This document shows positions 1 to 5,156 of a stretch of DNA of 5,156 bases, one piece after another. Each line of letters begins with the position of its first letter. The stretch's first letter is position 1. The notes beneath the pieces were generated by a model. It was given only the letters and a program-made list of their open reading frames with translations, searched no databases and was not told where the DNA came from. A program made the position numbers and the translations under genes. The DNA comes from a virus (taxonomy: Duplodnaviria; Heunggongvirae; Uroviricota; Caudoviricetes), in the IMG/VR virus record IMGVR_UViG_2740892258_000011. The stretch is one strand, 5' to 3'.

Positions 1-631
<631 letters not shown>

Positions 632-870
632 TTACCGCCGCGCCATTTCGCGGATTGCCACAACCGGAAGCGCACGGTCGACGAAAATTTAACGACAGGC
701 TATCTATGAACCAGCTACCTCGCCGTGCGCTTTCGCGTTATGGTCTGACTTTTCAGGGAAATATCCTTTCAGTAAACTGTCAGTGCCGGATGCTCACCCG
801 TGTCCGGCGCACGCACTCCACCTCACCCGTGGAGAACTCCTTAATTACCAACCTTAGCTTCGTTGGTTAG

Positions 871-1092
871 CTATTCACGCGGGTATGTAATCATTCTGGC
901 AATGCTTAATGCCGCTGCTTTTTCCAGATTGGTGATATCCTGCTCCAGAGCGGACAGATTTTCAGCCTGCTTAGCCCTGGCTTCATTGGCCCATTTCAAA
1001 TCCTGCGCTGCATTAATTTTCTGGCGCATCCACTCATAAAGTTCATCATTGGTATAGTCTGGCGCGATGATGACGGGTTCTCGTTTCTGCAT
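871..1092 (-). CDS. YdfC-like small prophage protein (73 aa), function unknown
   Basis: ORF-track protein MQKREPVIIAPDYTNDELYEWMRQKINAAQDLKWANEARAKQ..., with GAGGAA RBS 6-8 nt upstream of the ATG at 1090-1092. Size and position (third gene of leftward operon) resemble ydfC of the Qin dicB operon; homology is recalled, not searched. Confidence 0.6.
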   Translation of the reverse strand: MQKREPVIIAPDYTNDELYEWMRQKINAAQDLKWANEARAKQAENLSALEQDITNLEKAAALSIARMITYPRE

Positions 1093-1121
1093 ACTGATTC
1101 CTCGCGGTGCTGCTTCGCTTA

Positions 1122-1250
1122 TCAGCCGTTAGATTTTGCCGAGCTGGAAAGCGCCTGTTTAAACTCACTGAAGCTGAGAGCTTCTTCGCCTTCGGCAAGG
1201 CCTTCGAAGTATTCTTCGTAAGCCTTTTCCATGATTGTGTCGAAATCCAT
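1122..1250 (-). CDS. YdfB-like micro-protein (42 aa), acidic, function unknown
   Basis: Hand translation of the minus strand gives MDFDTIMEKAYEEYFEGLAEGEEALSFSEFKQALSSSAKSNG*. ATG at 1248-1250 preceded by AGGTGA; stop TGA at 1122-1124. Below the ORF-track length cutoff. Size and position match ydfB/ydaG-type genes. Confidence 0.55.
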   Translation of the reverse strand: MDFDTIMEKAYEEYFEGLAEGEEALSFSEFKQALSSSAKSNG

Positions 1251-1251
1251 A

Positions 1252-1407
1252 TCACTCACCTGAGTTTCTTTCCAGCCAGCGACGGGCACCATTTTCGGTT
1301 TTAAACGTTTTGCTTTTGGTATACGTCATCGCGGTGAACGTACCGTCCTGGTTGGGGAACACGCCACATACCAGAGATTCGCTGTTGCCAAGATCGATAG
1401 TATCCAT
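1252..1407 (-). CDS. YdfA/YdaF-like (DUF1391-type) small prophage protein, 51 aa
   Basis: MDTIDLGNSESLVCGVFPNQDGTFTAMTYTKSKTFKTENGARRWLERNSGE*, with GAGG RBS 6 nt upstream of the ATG at 1405-1407. The ORF track offers a longer form starting at 1488 (78 aa); the 51-aa form is preferred by family size. Stop lies 1 nt from the ydfB-like start. Confidence 0.6.
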   Translation of the reverse strand: MDTIDLGNSESLVCGVFPNQDGTFTAMTYTKSKTFKTENGARRWLERNSGE

Positions 1408-1586
1408 GCTGACCTCATTTCCCCTTAACGCCGGGGTAGCGGAACAAAAACCTGCTGCATAGTTATTAAAGTTGAACCCTGCCGTCATGTTCTTACGCCT
1501 CGGGCTGGCTACTTAACCCCTGACCACTGCCTGGTAACTAGAAGTATTGCCCTGCATTCTGTGGGGTGGGGAGAGGGAATGAATTA

Positions 1587-1615
1587 AGTTTAGAAAAATG
1601 AACTTTTCAGGTCAA
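1587..1615 (-). promoter_or_regulatory. PL-like sigma70 promoter for the leftward early operon
   Basis: On the minus strand: TTGACC (reverse complement of 1610-1615), 17-bp spacer, TAAACT (reverse complement of 1587-1592). Sits in the 290-bp gap between the CI-like stop and the ydfA-like gene, oriented toward ydfA/B/C. Confidence 0.5.
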
Positions 1616-1699
1616 TGTTTTTTTATCAAAACATTTTAAGCAGGCAGCTGTTAAGCCATCACCACGATGGCATACAGTTAATCAAATAGATGAGGTCGG

Positions 1700-2338
1700 T
1701 TAAATATTTTGTTGAATTTTAAAGCATACGCCCAATATGCAAGATAGATCATCCAGCATAATTGAAGGGTAGCGAGGATTCGTGGGGACTAAAAGAATAT
1801 CCGGCCCTTCTATCTCCAGTTTACGAATGACAGGTGTTGTGGTCCCTTTGGGTAAGGCAAGGACAATATTTCCTGGTTGTACGGTTCGATCGGGATCAAC
1901 AAAAACTGTTGAACCATTTGGGATGGAAACTCCCCCACCAGATGTTGACATACTGTCACTCTCTAGAACAACTGCAAAGGTATTGGCCGGGATTTCTCCG
2001 ACAAGCTGCACACAAGAGGTTATTGAGGAATTTTTCATATAATCACTCCAGCTTGCTGCCTGCTGAAGTGATAGTAGCGGAACCGTTTTTATCGGCGGTA
2101 AAGATAGATCAAGCGAATCACCTGTATTTAACTCTCCTCCATTAAGAAGCCAATTTTCGTTTACTTTCAATATTTTTGCCAGTGAACTTATGTAACGCGA
2201 GGACGGCGCTCCTCCACCGTTCATCCATTGACTTACGGAGCCTTTTGATGCGCCAGTGGCATTGACAAGGTCTTTGCCTTTCAGGTTTAGCGCATGCATA
2301 CGTTGGGTTATGCGTTCAGATATTGTTTGCTTGTTCAT
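1700..2338 (-). CDS. CI-like prophage repressor: N-terminal HTH plus C-terminal LexA/S24-type autopeptidase domain (212 aa)
   Basis: C-terminal half aligns by eye to lambda CI: SDSM vs GNSM (catalytic Ser), VDPDRTVQPGN vs VDPEQAVEPGD, RKL vs KKL (catalytic Lys), NPRYP vs NPQYP. N-terminus has an HTH-like segment (GASKGSVSQWMNG). Divergent from the cro-like gene. Confidence 0.85.
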   Translation of the reverse strand: MNKQTISERITQRMHALNLKGKDLVNATGASKGSVSQWMNGGGAPSSRYISSLAKILKVNENWLLNGGELNTGDSLDLSLPPIKTVPLLSLQQAASWSDYMKNSSITSCVQLVGEIPANTFAVVLESDSMSTSGGGVSIPNGSTVFVDPDRTVQPGNIVLALPKGTTTPVIRKLEIEGPDILLVPTNPRYPSIMLDDLSCILGVCFKIQQNI

Positions 2339-2339
2339 G

Positions 2340-2400
2340 TTTTGATTTTAAAACACAGATGGTTTTGTTTCTTGACTTTCTTTGGTTTTGATTATTAAAC
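2340..2400. promoter_or_regulatory. Divergent PR/PRM control region with candidate operators
   Basis: PR candidate: TTGACT at 2372-2377, with AT-rich -10 candidates at 2392-2400. PRM candidate on the minus strand: TAAAAT (reverse complement of 2345-2350) 6 bp upstream of the CI-like ATG, no Shine-Dalgarno. Repeated motifs TTTTGATTTTAAAAC (2340-2354), AAAAC-N7-GTTTT (2350-2366) and TTTTGATTATTAAAC (2386-2400). Confidence 0.5.
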
Positions 2401-2429
2401 TTTTGGCGTTCAGTTTTATGGAGCGACTC

Positions 2430-2672
2430 ATGAAAAAATCAGAAGTATTAGGCTATTTTGGCGGAGTTGTTAAAACAGCCGCAGCTCTAGGAACGTCAAA
2501 AACCACAGTCAGCATGTGGGGGGAAGAGGTTCCGTGGAAATGGGCGTTGCTAATTCAGGCAGTCACTGCCGGGGCGCTCAAATATGAGTTACACATACCG
2601 ACGGTTGTCATTCCCGGTTCTGATCATAATCCGCCTTCTAACCAAGGGGGGATTCATGAAAATCAAGCATGA
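2430..2672 (+). CDS. Cro-like / YdaS-like HTH protein (80 aa)
   Basis: ATG at 2430 with GGAG 8 nt upstream. MKKSEVLGYFGGVVKTAAALGTSKTTVSMWGEE... has a Cro/YdaS-like HTH pattern (GG...A..LG.S...VS.W). Divergent from CI-like gene. The ORF-track 5' extension from 2382 is judged untranslated. Confidence 0.7.
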   Translation: MKKSEVLGYFGGVVKTAAALGTSKTTVSMWGEEVPWKWALLIQAVTAGALKYELHIPTVVIPGSDHNPPSNQGGIHENQA

Positions 2673-2934
2673 ACACATCCGCATGGCGATGAATGCCTGG
2701 GCGCGTCCTGATGGCGAAAAAGTTCCGGCAGCTGGAATAACCCAGGCTTATTTTGAGTTGGGTATGACGTTTCCTGAACTGTACGACGACAGCCATCCGG
2801 AAGCCCTGGCTCGCAATACCCAGAAAATTTTCCGCTGGATAGAGAAAGACACCCCTGATGCAGTTGAAAAAATTCAGGCGTTGTTACCAGCGATCCCCGC
2901 CACAGGAAGAGACGGTGGTCAGCATTGCCGTTGA
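2656..2934 (+). CDS. YdaT-like / CII-position regulatory protein (92 aa), function uncertain
   Basis: ATG at 2656 preceded by a GGGGGG run; overlaps the cro-like gene by 17 bp. MKIKHEHIRMAMNAWARPDGEKVPAAG.... Family assignment is from memory and position (gene after cro). Confidence 0.45.
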   Translation: MKIKHEHIRMAMNAWARPDGEKVPAAGITQAYFELGMTFPELYDDSHPEALARNTQKIFRWIEKDTPDAVEKIQALLPAIPATGRDGGQHCR

Positions 2935-2956
2935 TCCTGAGTCTCCGGAATCTTTC

Positions 2957-3247
2957 ATGAAACGACCTAAACGTCGCCGCTGGGTTAACGAGAAATACAC
3001 ACGCTGGGTGAAGACACAGCCGTGTGCGTGTTGTGGTAAGCCAGCCGACGATCCCCATCACCTGATTGGTCATGGTCAGGGCGGAATGGGGACAAAATCT
3101 CACGATATTTTCACGCTACCGCTGTGTCGGGAGCATCACAACGAGCTTCATGCGGATCCTCTGGCGTTCGAAGAAAAGCATGGTTCTCAGGTTGATTTAA
3201 TTTTTCGTTTTCTTGATCACGCCTTTGCAACTGGCGTGCTTGGGTAA
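2957..3247 (+). CDS. YbcO-like (DUF1364-type) zinc-binding putative nuclease, 96 aa
   Basis: MKRPKRRRWVNEKYTRWVKTQPCACCGKPADDPHHLIGHGQGGMGTKSHDIFTLPLCREHHNELH.... The pattern CxxC...H.IG.G.GGMGTKSHD...C..HH resembles DLP12 YbcO (HIRLTGLCGTGTKPPD...CSACHDE), which is the same length. Internal ATG chosen over the 2858 start because the N-terminal extension would overlap the upstream gene by 77 bp. Confidence 0.55.
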   Translation: MKRPKRRRWVNEKYTRWVKTQPCACCGKPADDPHHLIGHGQGGMGTKSHDIFTLPLCREHHNELHADPLAFEEKHGSQVDLIFRFLDHAFATGVLG

Positions 3248-3259
3248 AAGAGGTGACTG

Positions 3260-3634
3260 ATGCTCATAGATTTGGTTTTACCTTACCCGCCGACGGTGAA
3301 CACTTACTGGCGACGCCGTGGCAGCACATATTTTATCTCGGAGGAGGGAAAGCGTTATCGCCGGGCTGTGGCGCTTATTGTTCGCCAGCAGCGGCTGAAA
3401 TTAAGCCTGTCCGGAAGGCTGGCGATAAAGGTGATTGCAGAGCCACCGGATAAGCGTCGTCGCGACCTGGACAATATCCTGAAAGCACCGCTGGATGCGC
3501 TGACGCATGCGGGAGTGTTAATGGACGATGAGCAGTTTGATGAAATCAATATCGTTCGTGGTCAGCCAGTATCTGGTGGACGTATGGGGGTGAAGATTTA
3601 CCCCATAATGCATGAAGAGCAGGTCAAAAAATGA
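3260..3634 (+). CDS. rusA: RusA-family Holliday junction resolvase (124 aa)
   Basis: AGAGGTGA RBS before ATG at 3260. ...YPPTVNTYWRRRGSTYFISEEGKRYR...PPDKRRRDLDNILKAPLDALTHAGVLMDDEQ... aligns to E. coli RusA (PWPPSNNRYYRHNRG...PDRRRRDLDNLQKAAFDAL). Confidence 0.85.
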   Translation: MLIDLVLPYPPTVNTYWRRRGSTYFISEEGKRYRRAVALIVRQQRLKLSLSGRLAIKVIAEPPDKRRRDLDNILKAPLDALTHAGVLMDDEQFDEINIVRGQPVSGGRMGVKIYPIMHEEQVKK

Positions 3635-4452
3635 AACTGGAAGATTTACCGAAATACTACTCCCCAAAATCCCCTGGCCTGACCGATGCATCGGCCTCAA
3701 CGTCAAAAGATGCGCTGAGTATCACTGATGTGATGGCCGCGCAGGGCATGACACAGAATCGGGCTGAGATGGGGTTTTCTGCGTTCCTGGGGAAAATGGG
3801 CATCAGTATGAATGACAGGGCGCGGGCAACAGAATTACTGGCAGATTATGCACTCAGTCGGTGCGATCGTGTGGCGGCGTTGAGAAAACTTCCGGCAGAA
3901 ATAAAACCGGTAGTGATGCGCATTATGGCTTCGTATGCGTTTGAAGATTATGCCCGTAGCGCGGCGAGCAAAAAACAGTGCCCTTGCTGTCACGGAAAAA
4001 AATTTATTGAAAGCGAGGTTTTTACAAACAAGATCCAGTATCCGGATGGTAAGCCACCAGTGTGGGCAAAGTGCACAAAAGGCGTGTATCCGTCTTACTG
4101 GGAAGAATGGAAAAAAGTCAGGGAGGTGGTAAAAGTTGCCTGTCCGGAGTGTGGCGGAAAGGGTGAGGTTTCCACCGCCTGTAAGGATTGCCGTGGGCGT
4201 GGTGTCGCCATTCATCGTGAAGAGTCGGTAAAACGTGGTATGCCTGTTATCAGAGATTGCCAGCGTTGTGGTGGTCGTGGCTGTGAAAGGCTGCCATCAA
4301 CGGAGGCATTTAATGCCATATGCAAAGTGACGAGTGCTATCACGCTTGATACGTGGAAAAAATCAGTGAAACGCTTTTACGATACGTTGGTGGTTCGGTT
4401 TGACATTGAAGAGGCATGGGCGGAGCGGCAGTTAAAGAGGGTAACGCGATAG
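3631..4452 (+). CDS. Lambda-family late antiterminator Q with enlarged cysteine-rich region (273 aa)
   Basis: ATGA overlap with the rusA stop. N- and C-terminal blocks match lambda Q: YYSPKSP vs FHSPKSP, ITDVMAAQGM vs GTDVMAAMGM, YAFEDYARSAA vs FAYADYCRSAA, YDTLVV...RVTR vs YDALVV...AVTR. The central region carries four CxxCxGxG-like repeats where lambda Q has two. Confidence 0.8.
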   Translation: MKLEDLPKYYSPKSPGLTDASASTSKDALSITDVMAAQGMTQNRAEMGFSAFLGKMGISMNDRARATELLADYALSRCDRVAALRKLPAEIKPVVMRIMASYAFEDYARSAASKKQCPCCHGKKFIESEVFTNKIQYPDGKPPVWAKCTKGVYPSYWEEWKKVREVVKVACPECGGKGEVSTACKDCRGRGVAIHREESVKRGMPVIRDCQRCGGRGCERLPSTEAFNAICKVTSAITLDTWKKSVKRFYDTLVVRFDIEEAWAERQLKRVTR

Positions 4453-4454
4453 TG

Positions 4455-4500
4455 TTGTTGATTTTTCCCGAATCTGTGGTAAATTTGCTCTAACGATGGG
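4455..4500 (+). promoter_or_regulatory. PR'-like late promoter with qut-like element
   Basis: TTGATT (4458-4463), 16-bp spacer, extended -10 TGgTAAATT (4477-4485). Downstream GGTAAATTTGCTCTAACGATGGG closely matches the lambda PR'/qut sequence GGTAAATTTGACTCAACGATGGG as I recall it. Confidence 0.6.
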
Positions 4501-4534
4501 CGTTTTATGCCTGACGTTAGAAGATTTTTTACAC

Positions 4535-4556
4535 CCCGCCGCCTGGCGGGTTTTTT
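4535..4556 (+). terminator. Rho-independent terminator (tR'-like) about 45-60 nt downstream of the PR' start
   Basis: Stem CCCGCC (4535-4540), loop GCCT, stem GGCGGG (4545-4550), then TTTTTT (4551-4556). Confidence 0.7.
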
Positions 4557-4676
4557 ATGACTGAAATCGCGTCAGTACAGTAAACGCGCTGGTGGCGGTG
4601 AATACCTGTCTTTCAGCTTGCTGGCTTTTTCGACAAGAGTTATTGGTGTGTCACGTTAACCGGAAAAGGAAAAGAC

Positions 4677-4874
4677 ATGCTAAAACAGCAGGATATGACA
4701 GAAACCGCCAGAGTGGTGTTTAATGAATTAAGCGTTACCGACCCGGCGACAGTCGGGGAGATAGCGCAGAATACTTACCTTTCACGCGAACGCTGCCAGT
4801 TAATACTGACTCAGCTGGTTATGGCGGGTCTGGCAGACTATCAGTTCGGTTGTTACAGACGCCTTCCGCAGTGA
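4677..4874 (+). CDS. Small hypothetical protein (65 aa), possible winged-helix DNA-binding fold
   Basis: ATG at 4677 with AAGGA RBS 8-9 nt upstream. The segment VGEIAQNTYLSRERCQLILTQLVMAGLA looks like a recognition helix-turn-helix, loosely reminiscent of PapI/FaeA-type small regulators. No confident homolog recalled. Confidence 0.4.
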   Translation: MLKQQDMTETARVVFNELSVTDPATVGEIAQNTYLSRERCQLILTQLVMAGLADYQFGCYRRLPQ

Positions 4875-4885
4875 AGGCTTTTTTA
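4861..4885 (+). terminator. Rho-independent terminator overlapping the stop codon of the small ORF
   Basis: Stem GCCTTC (4861-4866), loop CGCAGT, stem GAAGGC (4873-4878), then TTTTTTAT. Confidence 0.6.
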
Positions 4886-4901
4886 TTTGTGGTAAATGGG
4901 C

Positions 4902-4932
4902 GGCTGGTGGGTGTTAGGGGCACCCACCAGCC
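4902..4932. repeat. Perfect 12-bp inverted repeat with 7-nt spacer (strong hairpin or palindromic protein-binding site)
   Basis: GGCTGGTGGGTG (4902-4913), ttagggg, CACCCACCAGCC (4921-4932); arms are exact reverse complements. No T-run follows, so not a canonical intrinsic terminator. Confidence 0.6.
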
Positions 4933-5024
4933 ATCTGCTCATGCGTCCGGATCACAAGCAAACCTCAGGCCCACTGCTTTGCGCAAAAGCAGAATGAGCC
5001 TATCAGAGACAGGCTTAATGATCC

Positions 5025-5156
5025 ATGCTTAATACTGTAAAAATATCCAGTTGTGAGTTAATCAACGCCGACTGCCTGGAATTTATCCGGTCGTTACCCG
5101 AAAATTCTGTTGACCTGATAGTCACGGACCCGCCGTACTTTAAAGTGAAGCCTGAG
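5025..5156 (+). CDS. DNA methyltransferase (N6-adenine/N4-cytosine class, DPPY motif), N-terminal 44 codons; truncated by window end
   Basis: MLNTVKISSCELINADCLEFIRSLPENSVDLIVTDPPYFKVKPE. The block SVDLIVTDPPY is the catalytic motif IV, closely resembling YhdJ/phage Dam-like enzymes (SVDLIFADPPY). Weak RBS. Confidence 0.7.
   Translation, partial: MLNTVKISSCELINADCLEFIRSLPENSVDLIVTDPPYFKVKPE

Follow-up and report, generated by a model that had tools for sequence, protein, structure and literature searches.

Loss of the replication module from a Qin/CP-933P-like prophage remnant in one Escherichia coli isolate, very probably by a 5,877-nt internal deletion

The absence of replication genes from the prophage DNA described here is a loss in one E. 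coli isolate, that is, ordinary prophage decay and not a new kind of element. On the plus strand of the window (the whole stretch of 5,156 nt that was analysed), a cro-like gene and a YdaT-like gene are followed by an ORF at 2858/2915-3247, rusA and Q, without a replication gene. The replication genes are missing because 5.9 kb have been deleted from the middle of the prophage, and the junction at 2895|2896 (joint B) very probably arose when a Qin/CP-933P-like prophage located beside ompW spontaneously lost 5,877 internal nt. Such a deletion would have linked codon 80 of the 141 codons of ydaT, out of frame, to the final 116 of the 348 codons of the DUF968/ydfU gene, and would have taken with it the gene of a 356-aa initiator together with the iteron-like repeats that it contains. 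Another private deletion, of 11,937 nt at 625|626 (joint A), would have removed the attL side of the prophage and nine host genes.

The window forms the 3' end of contig CVOH01000063.1 (GCA_001245225.1; locus L003, 7346-12501), which stops 2 nt beyond it. It comes from one short-read draft assembly of one isolate, and no publication was found in a literature search with the assembly accessions. The parent is the ompW-integrated Qin/CP-933P-like lambdoid prophage of E. coli UTI89 and other ST95 strains (NC_007946, about 1388571-1407800); apart from the two joints, the window is identical base for base to the UTI89 copy. Window positions 555-625 correspond to UTI89 cls (positions 1-71 of the UTI89 locus, L001), 626-2895 to L001 12009-14278 and 2896-5156 to L001 20156-22416, each with 0 mismatches, the three segments being colinear and separated in UTI89 by gaps of 11,937 and 5,877 nt. 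All retained prophage bases (626-5156) are therefore found in UTI89 in the same order and orientation, the genes in common being ydfC, ydfB, ydfA, the cI-like gene, cro, ydaT, DUF968, rusA and Q. What UTI89 has in addition are the 5,877 nt from ydaT codon 80 to DUF968 codon 232, the entire int-to-dicF arm and the flanking host genes. Since the flanks are 100% identical to UTI89, both deletions appear to be very recent. The features of the window are collected in Table 1; the other listed ORFs correspond to host yciU and cls or to overlaps within the listed genes, and an Rfam scan of the window returned no RNA family above threshold.

Table 1. Features of the 5,156-nt window and the evidence for each (L001, UTI89 locus; L003, locus holding the contig)
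Feature	Positions	Strand	Evidence
yciU (DUF440), intact host gene, left chromosomal flank	1..330	-	L003 7346-7675, PF04269
cls (cardiolipin synthase) 3' fragment, host: last ~86 codons + stop	365..625	-	UTI89 identity over 555-625
Joint A, 625|626	620..631	.	base-by-base comparison with both parents
ydfC, 73 aa	871..1092	-	identical to UTI89 ydfC, L001 12254-12475
ydfB, 42 aa	1122..1250	-	UTI89 annotation L001 12505-12633; called gene L003 8467-8595
ydfA / DUF1391 gene	1252..1488	-	PF07151, 2.9e-27; UTI89 annotation ydfA
cI-like repressor, 212 aa, HTH + S24 peptidase	1700..2338	-	identical to that of UTI89
Divergent control region (putative function)	2339..2429	.	repeat search and promoter consensus scan
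cro-like gene, 80 aa, intact	2430..2672	+	P22_Cro 1.1e-15; UTI89 Cro/CI family gene L001 13813-14055
ydaT' pseudogene	2656..2934	+	YdaT_toxin 4.5e-08 (Pfam); translations compared with UTI89
Joint B, 2895|2896	2886..2905	.	base-by-base comparison with UTI89
'ydfU / DUF968 (HNH-type) 3' fragment	2896..3247	+	DUF968 4.9e-60 (Pfam)
rusA, Holliday-junction resolvase, intact	3260..3634	+	RusA 2.6e-17 (Pfam); identical to UTI89
Q-type late antiterminator, 273 aa, intact	3631..4452	+	Antiterm PF03589 2e-49; identical to UTI89
Terminator-like hairpin CCCGCCGCCTGGCGGG + T-run 3' of Q, candidate tR' by position	4535..4560	+	consensus scan
65-aa ORF, UTI89 hypothetical	4677..4874	+	weak TrmB-like match
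Prophage DNA methyltransferase gene, 5' end	5025..5156	+	UTI89 annotation L001 22285-23334, offset 17260

According to the UTI89 annotation, the 5,877 nt removed at joint B (UTI89 1395523-1401399) hold ydaT codons 81-141, the 356-aa replication initiator, a DUF977 gene (DUF977/Ren-like), two unknown genes, hok/sok (hokD), a small ORF and DUF968 codons 1-231. The lost 356-aa protein matches phrog_3729 "replication initiation protein" (5.4e-258) as well as DnaD-like loader families, to which NCBIfam adds only a weak DnaT C-terminal resemblance, and its gene carries iteron-like GTCACG repeats with a 10-nt spacing. In the parent, Rfam places sok and DicF within deleted stretches only, and neither the two deleted genes of unknown function nor the small ORFs of the window matched a PADLOC defence-system model. 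The sole stretch that the two parents of joint B have in common, ACCAGC, lies 4 nt before the joint. None of 5,426 complete E. coli genomes contains joint B, an exact 32-mer spanning it is absent from metagenome contigs, and neither joint is present in the 50,697 phage records searched, in which the two halves of the window match different phages, with matches ending at or within ~35 nt of 2895|2896. The YdaT'/DUF968 fusion ORF is on record for one contig only. With the deletion, the distance from the cro start to the Q start became 1.2 kb as compared with 7.1 kb in the parent, and a terminator-like site close to hokD (L001 19082-19099) was lost.

An earlier note on this DNA had described an immunity region leading directly into nin-type genes with no replication module, and on this the ORF list and the profile scans agree, none of ten candidate window genes having matched a replication family in Pfam and PHROG searches. 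Judged as a lambdoid early-right operon, in which initiator and origin lie between the cII-equivalent and nin/Q, the window has neither at that place, where the parent prophage of UTI89 carries both its initiator and the iteron-like repeats. ydaT and the 356-aa initiator occur together on one stretch in 1,639 of the 5,426 complete E. coli genomes, and among the matches listed all those that reach past ydaT carry a replication-type gene alongside. A gene-order comparison with Rac, proposed in the same note and run here, gave ydaU and ydaV after ydaT, the expected canonical order. Likewise, the int/xis side reported as missing is absent from the window, and the comparison with UTI89 puts both genes within a deletion. 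With int/xis and the initiator absent and ydaT', 'DUF968 and cls' truncated at the joints, the element is a defective (cryptic) prophage, in agreement with its earlier description as replication-defective; lacking both the replication module and the int/xis side, the remnant should therefore neither replicate nor excise. What does not hold is the picture of an intact YdaT-like gene abutting the nin-type genes, as the ORFs on both sides of the deletion joint are fragments.

The cro-like and YdaT-like genes overlap by exactly 17 nt (2656-2672), as had been noticed before, and a 17-nt overlap is likewise annotated for cro/ydaT of UTI89 and dicC/ydfX of K-12 Qin, unlike Rac ydaS/ydaT, which do not overlap. 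The ydaT' pseudogene retains native codons 1-80 (2656-2895) and then reads through 12 out-of-frame codons of the DUF968 gene to a stop at 2932-2934. It scores 33.8 bits against the YdaT family PF06254 (cut-off 21) and matches the CII-like phrog_163 (1.6e-34) over residues 1-81 only; Pfam finds YdaT_toxin and no replication family. Full-length UTI89 YdaT (141 aa) matches PDB 3C4R and 8BT1 end to end, 8BT1 being the CP-933P protein of E. coli O157:H7 (E = 2.9e-79), and the UTI89 type is 88-95% identical to solved YdaT proteins and 33% identical to Rac YdaT. Only residues 1-80 survive in the window. With the domain limits placed by aligning YdaT in full length to 8BT1, the cut falls within the POU DNA-binding domain (residues 3-90) and before helix alpha6 (residues 100-120), which forms the DNA-binding tetramer (PMC9986795), and ydaT' contains neither a complete POU domain nor this helix. 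CP-933P YdaT(1-96) showed no DNA binding (PMC9986795), and an inactive YdaT' would be the expected consequence of the truncation. A search for the CP-933P operator TTGATTN6AATCAA gave one match with 2 mismatches at the ydaT start (2649-2666), which is at chance level because shuffled sequences produced one or more matches in 71 of 200 cases. That YdaS/YdaT were once proposed to be a toxin-antitoxin pair is historically correct (PMC5917428), but this reading has been superseded: the two are argued to be Cro/CII equivalents, and toxin-antitoxin activity was not found (PMC5917428, PMC9986795). The ydaT copy of the window is in any event a truncated one.

The ORF downstream of joint B, previously taken for a YbcO-like gene, is DUF968. 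Its BLASTP resemblance to K-12 YbcO (14/44 identical, 32%, E = 7e-4) is confined to 44 residues around the Cys/His motif, and all that it has in common with ybcO (DLP12 putative nuclease family) is its position upstream of rusA. It represents the C-terminal third of the parent ydfU/DUF968 gene and scores 202.9 bits over profile positions 60-171 of 171 in Pfam, where nothing else was found apart from a sub-threshold HNHc_6; against phrog_96 (HNH endonuclease) it covers positions 220-333 of 334. It is a family member by descent and yet a gene fragment. Its possible fortuitous starts are an ATG at 2858, inside ydaT', or an in-frame GTG at 2915 behind AGGAAGAG; the gene caller chose the latter, giving a 110-aa product that is also called on 186 further contigs. 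The annotation of the contig is corrected in that its "toxin YdaT family" ORF and its small DUF968 ORF are not intact genes, nor is the element one that lacks replication genes by design.

Joint A removes UTI89 1381316-1393252 and fuses cls, which in many genomes is 100% identical as far as window position 625 and whose called fragment gives a weak PLDc_2 match, to the dicF-ydfC spacer of the prophage. On the attL side of the prophage, int, xis, exo, ydfD, dicB and dicF are lost (UTI89 annotation), the DicF match lying inside the deleted stretch of the parent (L001 11863-11914); the nine host genes affected include ompW, tonB, yciABC, kch and most of cls. At the joint, the parents have an imperfect TAACCC(C)GCC motif in common, 2 nt are missing relative to a simple crossover, and joint A is also absent from the 5,426 complete genomes. 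Neither joint is a clean microhomology joint.

The repressor gene, for which both RefSeq and the gene caller give just 112 aa, encodes a protein with Pfam matches to Peptidase_S24 (2e-13) and HTH_3 (2.4e-4) and a match to phrog_4 (1.5e-40) across residues 2-210. For an SOS-cleavable repressor of the LexA/cI type, the features looked for were an HTH, the Ser-Lys dyad of S24 peptidases and a scissile bond of Ala-Gly or Cys-Gly. In the window repressor, Ser (ESDSM) and Lys (IRKL) align with Ser149 and Lys192 of lambda cI (3BDN), but the position of the lambda scissile bond Ala111-Gly112 reads Ala-Ala. The intact SOS switch suggested earlier was borne out only in part, as the HTH and the dyad are kept, whereas the cleavage position is altered and the cII-equivalent partner is broken; the late antiterminator, also suggested to be kept, is an intact gene. 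Within the control region, two 16-nt near-palindromes (2339-2354 and 2385-2400) were recovered as repeat matches, and a consensus match (TTGACT-18-TAAACT, 2372-2401) is a putative pR-like promoter. What is left over would be the cI-like repressor, Cro, a possibly translated HNH fragment, RusA and Q. With Q lying 1.2 kb from the cro start and the terminator-like site gone, late transcription that depends on Q is therefore the most that derepression could drive, with no amplification of phage DNA.

A comparable loss is seen in K-12 Qin, a cryptic prophage. At the protein level, Qin (dicA-dicC-ydfX ... hokD-ydfU-ydfT) has the same set and order of gene families as the window; its YdfX (96 aa) aligns with YdaT residues 1-83 only and so is a cII-equivalent cut short like YdaT', again with no replication initiator behind it, and its int side is likewise degraded (pseudogenes ydfE and intQ, plus IS2). 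Unlike the window, Qin retains dicB, dicF, relBE, hokD and a full-length ydfU, and an S24 domain is absent from its repressor DicA. The Qin losses are also old and common to K-12, whereas the deletions in the window are private and recent. The Rac initiator YdaU shares with that of UTI89 only the C-terminal PD..IPPGFRG motif. In how it would work, the joint B deletion resembles lambda nin5: lying between the early-right genes and Q, it shortens the path from pR to Q and takes away a terminator-like site. nin5 leaves O and P in place, whereas the deletion in the window takes the replication module too.

Other origins of the joints were weighed. An assembly artefact, in which two parts of an intact prophage have been wrongly joined and the isolate carries a full UTI89-like element, is very unlikely. 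The joints are slightly untidy and known from one contig of one draft assembly, and the contig end 2 nt past the window shows that the assembly was breaking in the prophage region; however, the parents share 6 nt near each joint, far less than any assembler word size, and the joined pieces lie 5.9 and 11.9 kb apart in UTI89, presumably beyond an ordinary read-pair span unless the DNA between them was deleted. Two separate joints with perfect flanks on one colinear contig also argue against misassembly, as do finished genomes, AST205 for example, that hold independent deletions of the same prophage. That the window represents a natural satellite-like or streamlined element, designed without a replication module and carrying YdaT and YbcO-like genes that are intact, would agree with ORFs that tile the region without large gaps, with a DUF968 fragment that has a whole HNH-type motif and an in-frame GTG behind the Shine-Dalgarno-like AGGAAGAG, and with the lack of replication genes behind the short YdaT-like gene of K-12 Qin. 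The boundary ORFs are nevertheless both truncated versions of parent genes, 100% identical to them, which rules out such a design almost completely; furthermore, ydaT' closes with 12 out-of-frame residues, the junction is in no other genome or phage searched, and the window lacks int, a primase and other genes that are hallmarks of satellites. A phage satellite of the PICI type was also rejected, since the window has no integrase and no primase/replicase and its sequence is a colinear part of a complete prophage. Mosaic exchange between two prophages was discarded since both flanks are colinear with, and 100% identical to, the same prophage, and an engineered deletion since neither joint bears an FRT or other scar sequence.

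A spontaneous deletion being very probably the origin of joint B, it may be asked whether selection retained it. That both deletions are the footprint of surviving derepression, by removal of early functions harmful to the host (dicB, dicF, ydfD, in-situ replication, hokD), is conceivable but rather unlikely. The losses do include dicB, dicF, the ydfD "lysis protein", hok/sok and the initiator with its iteron-like repeats, the perfect flanks imply very recent events, and non-excisable derepressible lambda fragments kill their host, the survivors being unable to initiate phage replication (PMC6022878), a loss of initiator/origin in a non-excisable prophage as in the window. Speculatively, a non-excisable prophage with an inducible origin would be lethal ("replicative killing"), and loss of initiator and origin would then be favoured. 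Nonetheless, a single isolate is concerned, Q and maybe the lysis genes are kept so that derepression would still be lethal, and the loss of tonB, ompW and cls fits phage or colicin selection on host genes, or chance, equally well. More doubtful still is the wider proposal that the deletions are a natural counterpart of the laboratory "replicative-killing" survivors, leaving a repressor/Cro switch 1.2 kb from Q that may respond to DNA damage by driving late or lysis genes without producing phage; if true, the excision arm would have been lost first, and the inducible origin and other host-killing early genes would then have been selected away.

Taken together, the window offers a cleanly resolved and very recent case of a lambdoid prophage turning cryptic, by two deletions with the rest unchanged. 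Its decay parallels that undergone long ago by K-12 Qin, and for the biology of the isolate the co-deleted tonB, ompW and cls probably weigh more than the prophage scar itself.

The lack of replication genes between the cro/YdaT-like genes and the nin-type genes is a private deletion scar in which both boundary genes are broken, a cause missed by the earlier note, whose reading of the element as defective for replication and excision nevertheless stands. The joints were mapped by local BLAST and direct string comparison of the window with the E. coli UTI89 locus carrying the ompW-adjacent Qin/CP-933P-like prophage (L001), and three colinear blocks without a single mismatch were recovered (Table). 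The window therefore corresponds to this UTI89 prophage with two internal segments missing, deletion A of 11,937 nt (UTI89 1381316-1393252) and deletion B of 5,877 nt (UTI89 1395523-1401399). By megablast, positions 620-2895 matched ST95-type strains, UTI89, S88 and APEC O1 among them, at 99.9%, the match ending at 2895, and none of 5,426 complete E. coli genomes covered at least 80% of the window. The ORF list and the Pfam/PHROG scans used for the gene map bore out the gene order previously proposed (cro, YdaT-like, next ORF, rusA, Q), the 17-nt overlap of cro and ydaT and the lack of a replication gene in the window. The window comprises the last 5,156 nt but two of contig CVOH01000063.1 (36,137 nt); further upstream on this contig, ychE (a MarC-family gene), oppABCDF and yciU follow normal E. 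coli synteny.

Features of the window and its blocks of identity to the UTI89 locus L001
Feature	Window position	Strand	L001 position	Remark
host yciU	1-330	-		
host cls, last ~86 codons	365-625	-		
ydfC	871-1092	-		
ydfB	1122-1250	-		
ydfA (DUF1391)	1252-1488	-		
cI-like repressor, 212 aa	1700-2338	-		HTH + S24
control region, 91 nt	2339-2429	.		
cro	2430-2672	+		P22_Cro
YdaT-like ORF	2656-2934	+		
DUF968 ORF	2858 or 2915-3247	+		
rusA	3260-3634	+		
Q	3631-4452	+		
terminator-like hairpin	4535-4550	+		consensus match
65-aa ORF	4677-4874	+		
DNA methyltransferase gene, start	5025-5156	+		
block: cls	555-625		1-71	
block: left prophage segment	626-2895		12009-14278	
block: right prophage segment	2896-5156		20156-22416	

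According to the UTI89 annotation and family scans, deletion B took out ydaT codons 81-141, the gene for a 356-aa protein that aligned over its full length with phrog_3729 ("replication initiation protein", 5.4e-258) and also hit DnaD-like helicase-loader families, a DUF977/Ren-like gene, two neighbouring cargo genes of 320 and 333 aa without assigned function (L001 16261-18240, flanked by the DUF977 gene and hokD), hokD itself with the associated sok RNA (Rfam RF01794), a 92-aa ORF and DUF968 codons 1-231. The two cargo genes gave weak matches alone (HEPN/RES N-terminal-like and GNAT-like), and no PADLOC or NCBIfam family matched them. The C-terminal PDNEIPPGFRG motif of the 356-aa initiator is common to Rac YdaU and bears a weak likeness to the DnaT C-terminus. 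Within the initiator gene, GTCACG repeats with a 10-nt spacing form two clusters (L001 14664-14702 and 14924-14972), a layout resembling the iterons inside lambda O; they look iteron-like and mark a putative prophage origin, which on this resemblance was probably lost together with the initiator gene. In 1,639 of the 5,426 complete genomes, ydaT and this initiator occur together on a single stretch, and among the matches listed that run past ydaT the adjoining gene is always replication-type. The canonical order expected in the earlier note, with replication genes after the cII-like gene, is thus the norm in this phage group too.

At the left boundary, the truncated ydaT' retains native residues 1-80, followed by 12 out-of-frame codons in the DUF968 gene and a stop at 2932-2934; the full-length UTI89 YdaT (141 aa) aligned along its whole length with the YdaT structures 3C4R and 8BT1. 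In CP-933P YdaT, the POU DNA-binding domain spans residues 3-90, helix alpha6 (100-120) forms the tetramer, and YdaT(1-96) showed no operator binding (PMC9986795). Since ydaT' is cut at residue 80, its product almost certainly no longer works as a CII-type regulator, judging from this close homologue. At the ydaT start, GGGATTCATGAAAATCAA (2649-2666) has two mismatches to the CP-933P YdaT operator TTGATTN6AATCAA (PMC9986795), a match not distinguishable from chance, at least one being obtained in 71 of 200 shuffles. The gene at the right boundary, formerly called YbcO-like, is not of the YbcO family; it matched DUF968 (4.9e-60) across the last 112 positions of the profile, its likeness to K-12 YbcO being confined to the surroundings of the Cys/His motif, and it occupies the same place as ybcO, just upstream of rusA. 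It keeps the last 116 of 348 codons, and the gene caller placed its start at an in-frame GTG (2915) that follows AGGAAGAG; an HNH-motif fragment may be translated from there. Gene calls of the same 110-aa C-terminal DUF968 product (GTG start, 2915-3247) exist on 186 other contigs, finished genomes among them; either disruption of DUF968 genes is frequent or gene callers often choose this internal start.

The 92-aa YdaT-like product was recovered by exact look-up from a single contig only (GCA_001245225.1, CVOH01000063.1), none of the 5,426 complete E. coli genomes covered 80% of the 200-nt queries spanning joint A or joint B, and the exact 32-mer across joint B was absent from metagenome contigs. 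In phage records, the halves of 2430-3260 matched different phages, the left matches ending exactly at 2895 and the best right match beginning at 2896. String comparison revealed clean microhomology at neither joint: at joint B, ACCAGC is common to both parents with the crossover 4 nt beyond, and at joint A, TAACCC(C)GCC occurs in both parents, the product being 2 nt short of a simple crossover. No FRT-like or IS sequence was found at either joint. An assembly misjoin in place of real deletions is very improbable, because the parents have only 6 nt in common near each joint and distances of 5.9 and 11.9 kb separate the segments that were joined. The ompW prophage has also decayed independently in the finished genome of E. 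coli AST205, in which a shortened ydfA (DUF1391) is joined to a 5'-truncated DUF968 pseudogene (AST205 locus L002, 7225-8309), the deletion taking the whole immunity and replication region.

Taken as a real loss, deletion A places the 3' end of cls directly next to prophage sequence (window 365-631, joint 625|626) and, by the UTI89 annotation, removed most of cls together with yciY, kch, yciI, tonB, yciA, yciB, yciC and ompW on the host side and int, xis, exonuclease, ydfD and dicB on the prophage side; DicF also lies within it (Rfam match L001 11863-11914). The missing int/xis side pointed out earlier was therefore correct, a host gene block having been lost as well. With these losses the isolate is expected to be deficient in TonB, OmpW and Cls, a state that points to possible selection of deletion A by phage or colicin. 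A speculative addition to the main explanation, which we consider rather unlikely, is that survivors of prophage derepression lost the replication module. In lambda fragments that are non-excisable but derepressible, replication from the prophage origin kills the host, and survivors of this killing have lost phage replication initiation (PMC6022878). After deletion A, a UTI89-type prophage would equal such a fragment, deletion B is the type of lesion expected among survivors, and dicB, dicF, ydfD and hokD, all host-damaging functions, were also deleted; however, Q was retained, the two deletions may have arisen in either order, a single isolate is concerned, and the advantage that favoured deletion A may instead have been losing tonB or ompW.

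In the repressor, control region, cro, rusA and Q, the window does not differ from UTI89 at any position. The 91-nt cI-cro spacer contains two 16-nt near-palindromes 46 nt apart, GTTTTGATTTTAAAAC (2339-2354) and GTTTTGATTATTAAAC (2385-2400), which are likely operators, the second overlapping the -10 element of a pR-like promoter (TTGACT-18-TAAACT, 2372-2401, consensus match). Deletion B shortened the distance from cro to Q from 7,078 nt in UTI89 to 1,201 nt, and the terminator-like site after hokD (L001 19082-19099, consensus match) is absent from the window. Starting 83 nt past the Q stop codon, there is a strong GC hairpin with a T-run after it (4535 to 4560), placed where a tR'-type terminator for a short pR' transcript would be expected. 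In alignment with lambda cI, the repressor retains both residues of the Ser/Lys dyad and reads Ala-Ala at the position of the scissile Ala111-Gly112, so that its RecA-dependent cleavage is not assured. Of the 212-aa ORF, the C-terminal 112 aa alone are annotated ("LexA family protein") in RefSeq UTI89 and by the contig's gene caller, probably a start-site miscall. Lacking int/xis, initiator and origin, the element would neither excise nor amplify. Upon inactivation of the repressor, pR transcription would reach Q quickly, and Q may then switch on any late genes left, which would sit past the contig end.

In Rac (racR-ydaS-ydaT-ydaU-ydaV), the replication genes lie directly 3' of ydaT, and ydaS and ydaT do not overlap; the idea that YdaS/YdaT form a toxin-antitoxin pair has been disputed, Cro/CII roles being preferred (PMC5917428; PMC9986795). 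The closest precedent is Qin of K-12, where dicC and ydfX overlap by the same 17 nt as cro and ydaT (K-12 locus L006, 15347-15851), YdfX (96 aa) is a truncated YdaT homologue aligning to YdaT residues 1-83 only (38% identity), and no initiator follows ydfX, ydfU (DUF968) and ydfT (Q) being found further along. The end of YdfX homology (residue 83) falls almost at the ydaT' cut (residue 80), which may reflect coincidence or a preferred breakpoint. Given Qin, a truncated cII-equivalent with a lost replication module is already textbook for a cryptic prophage; the window represents the ordinary decay of an already known prophage.
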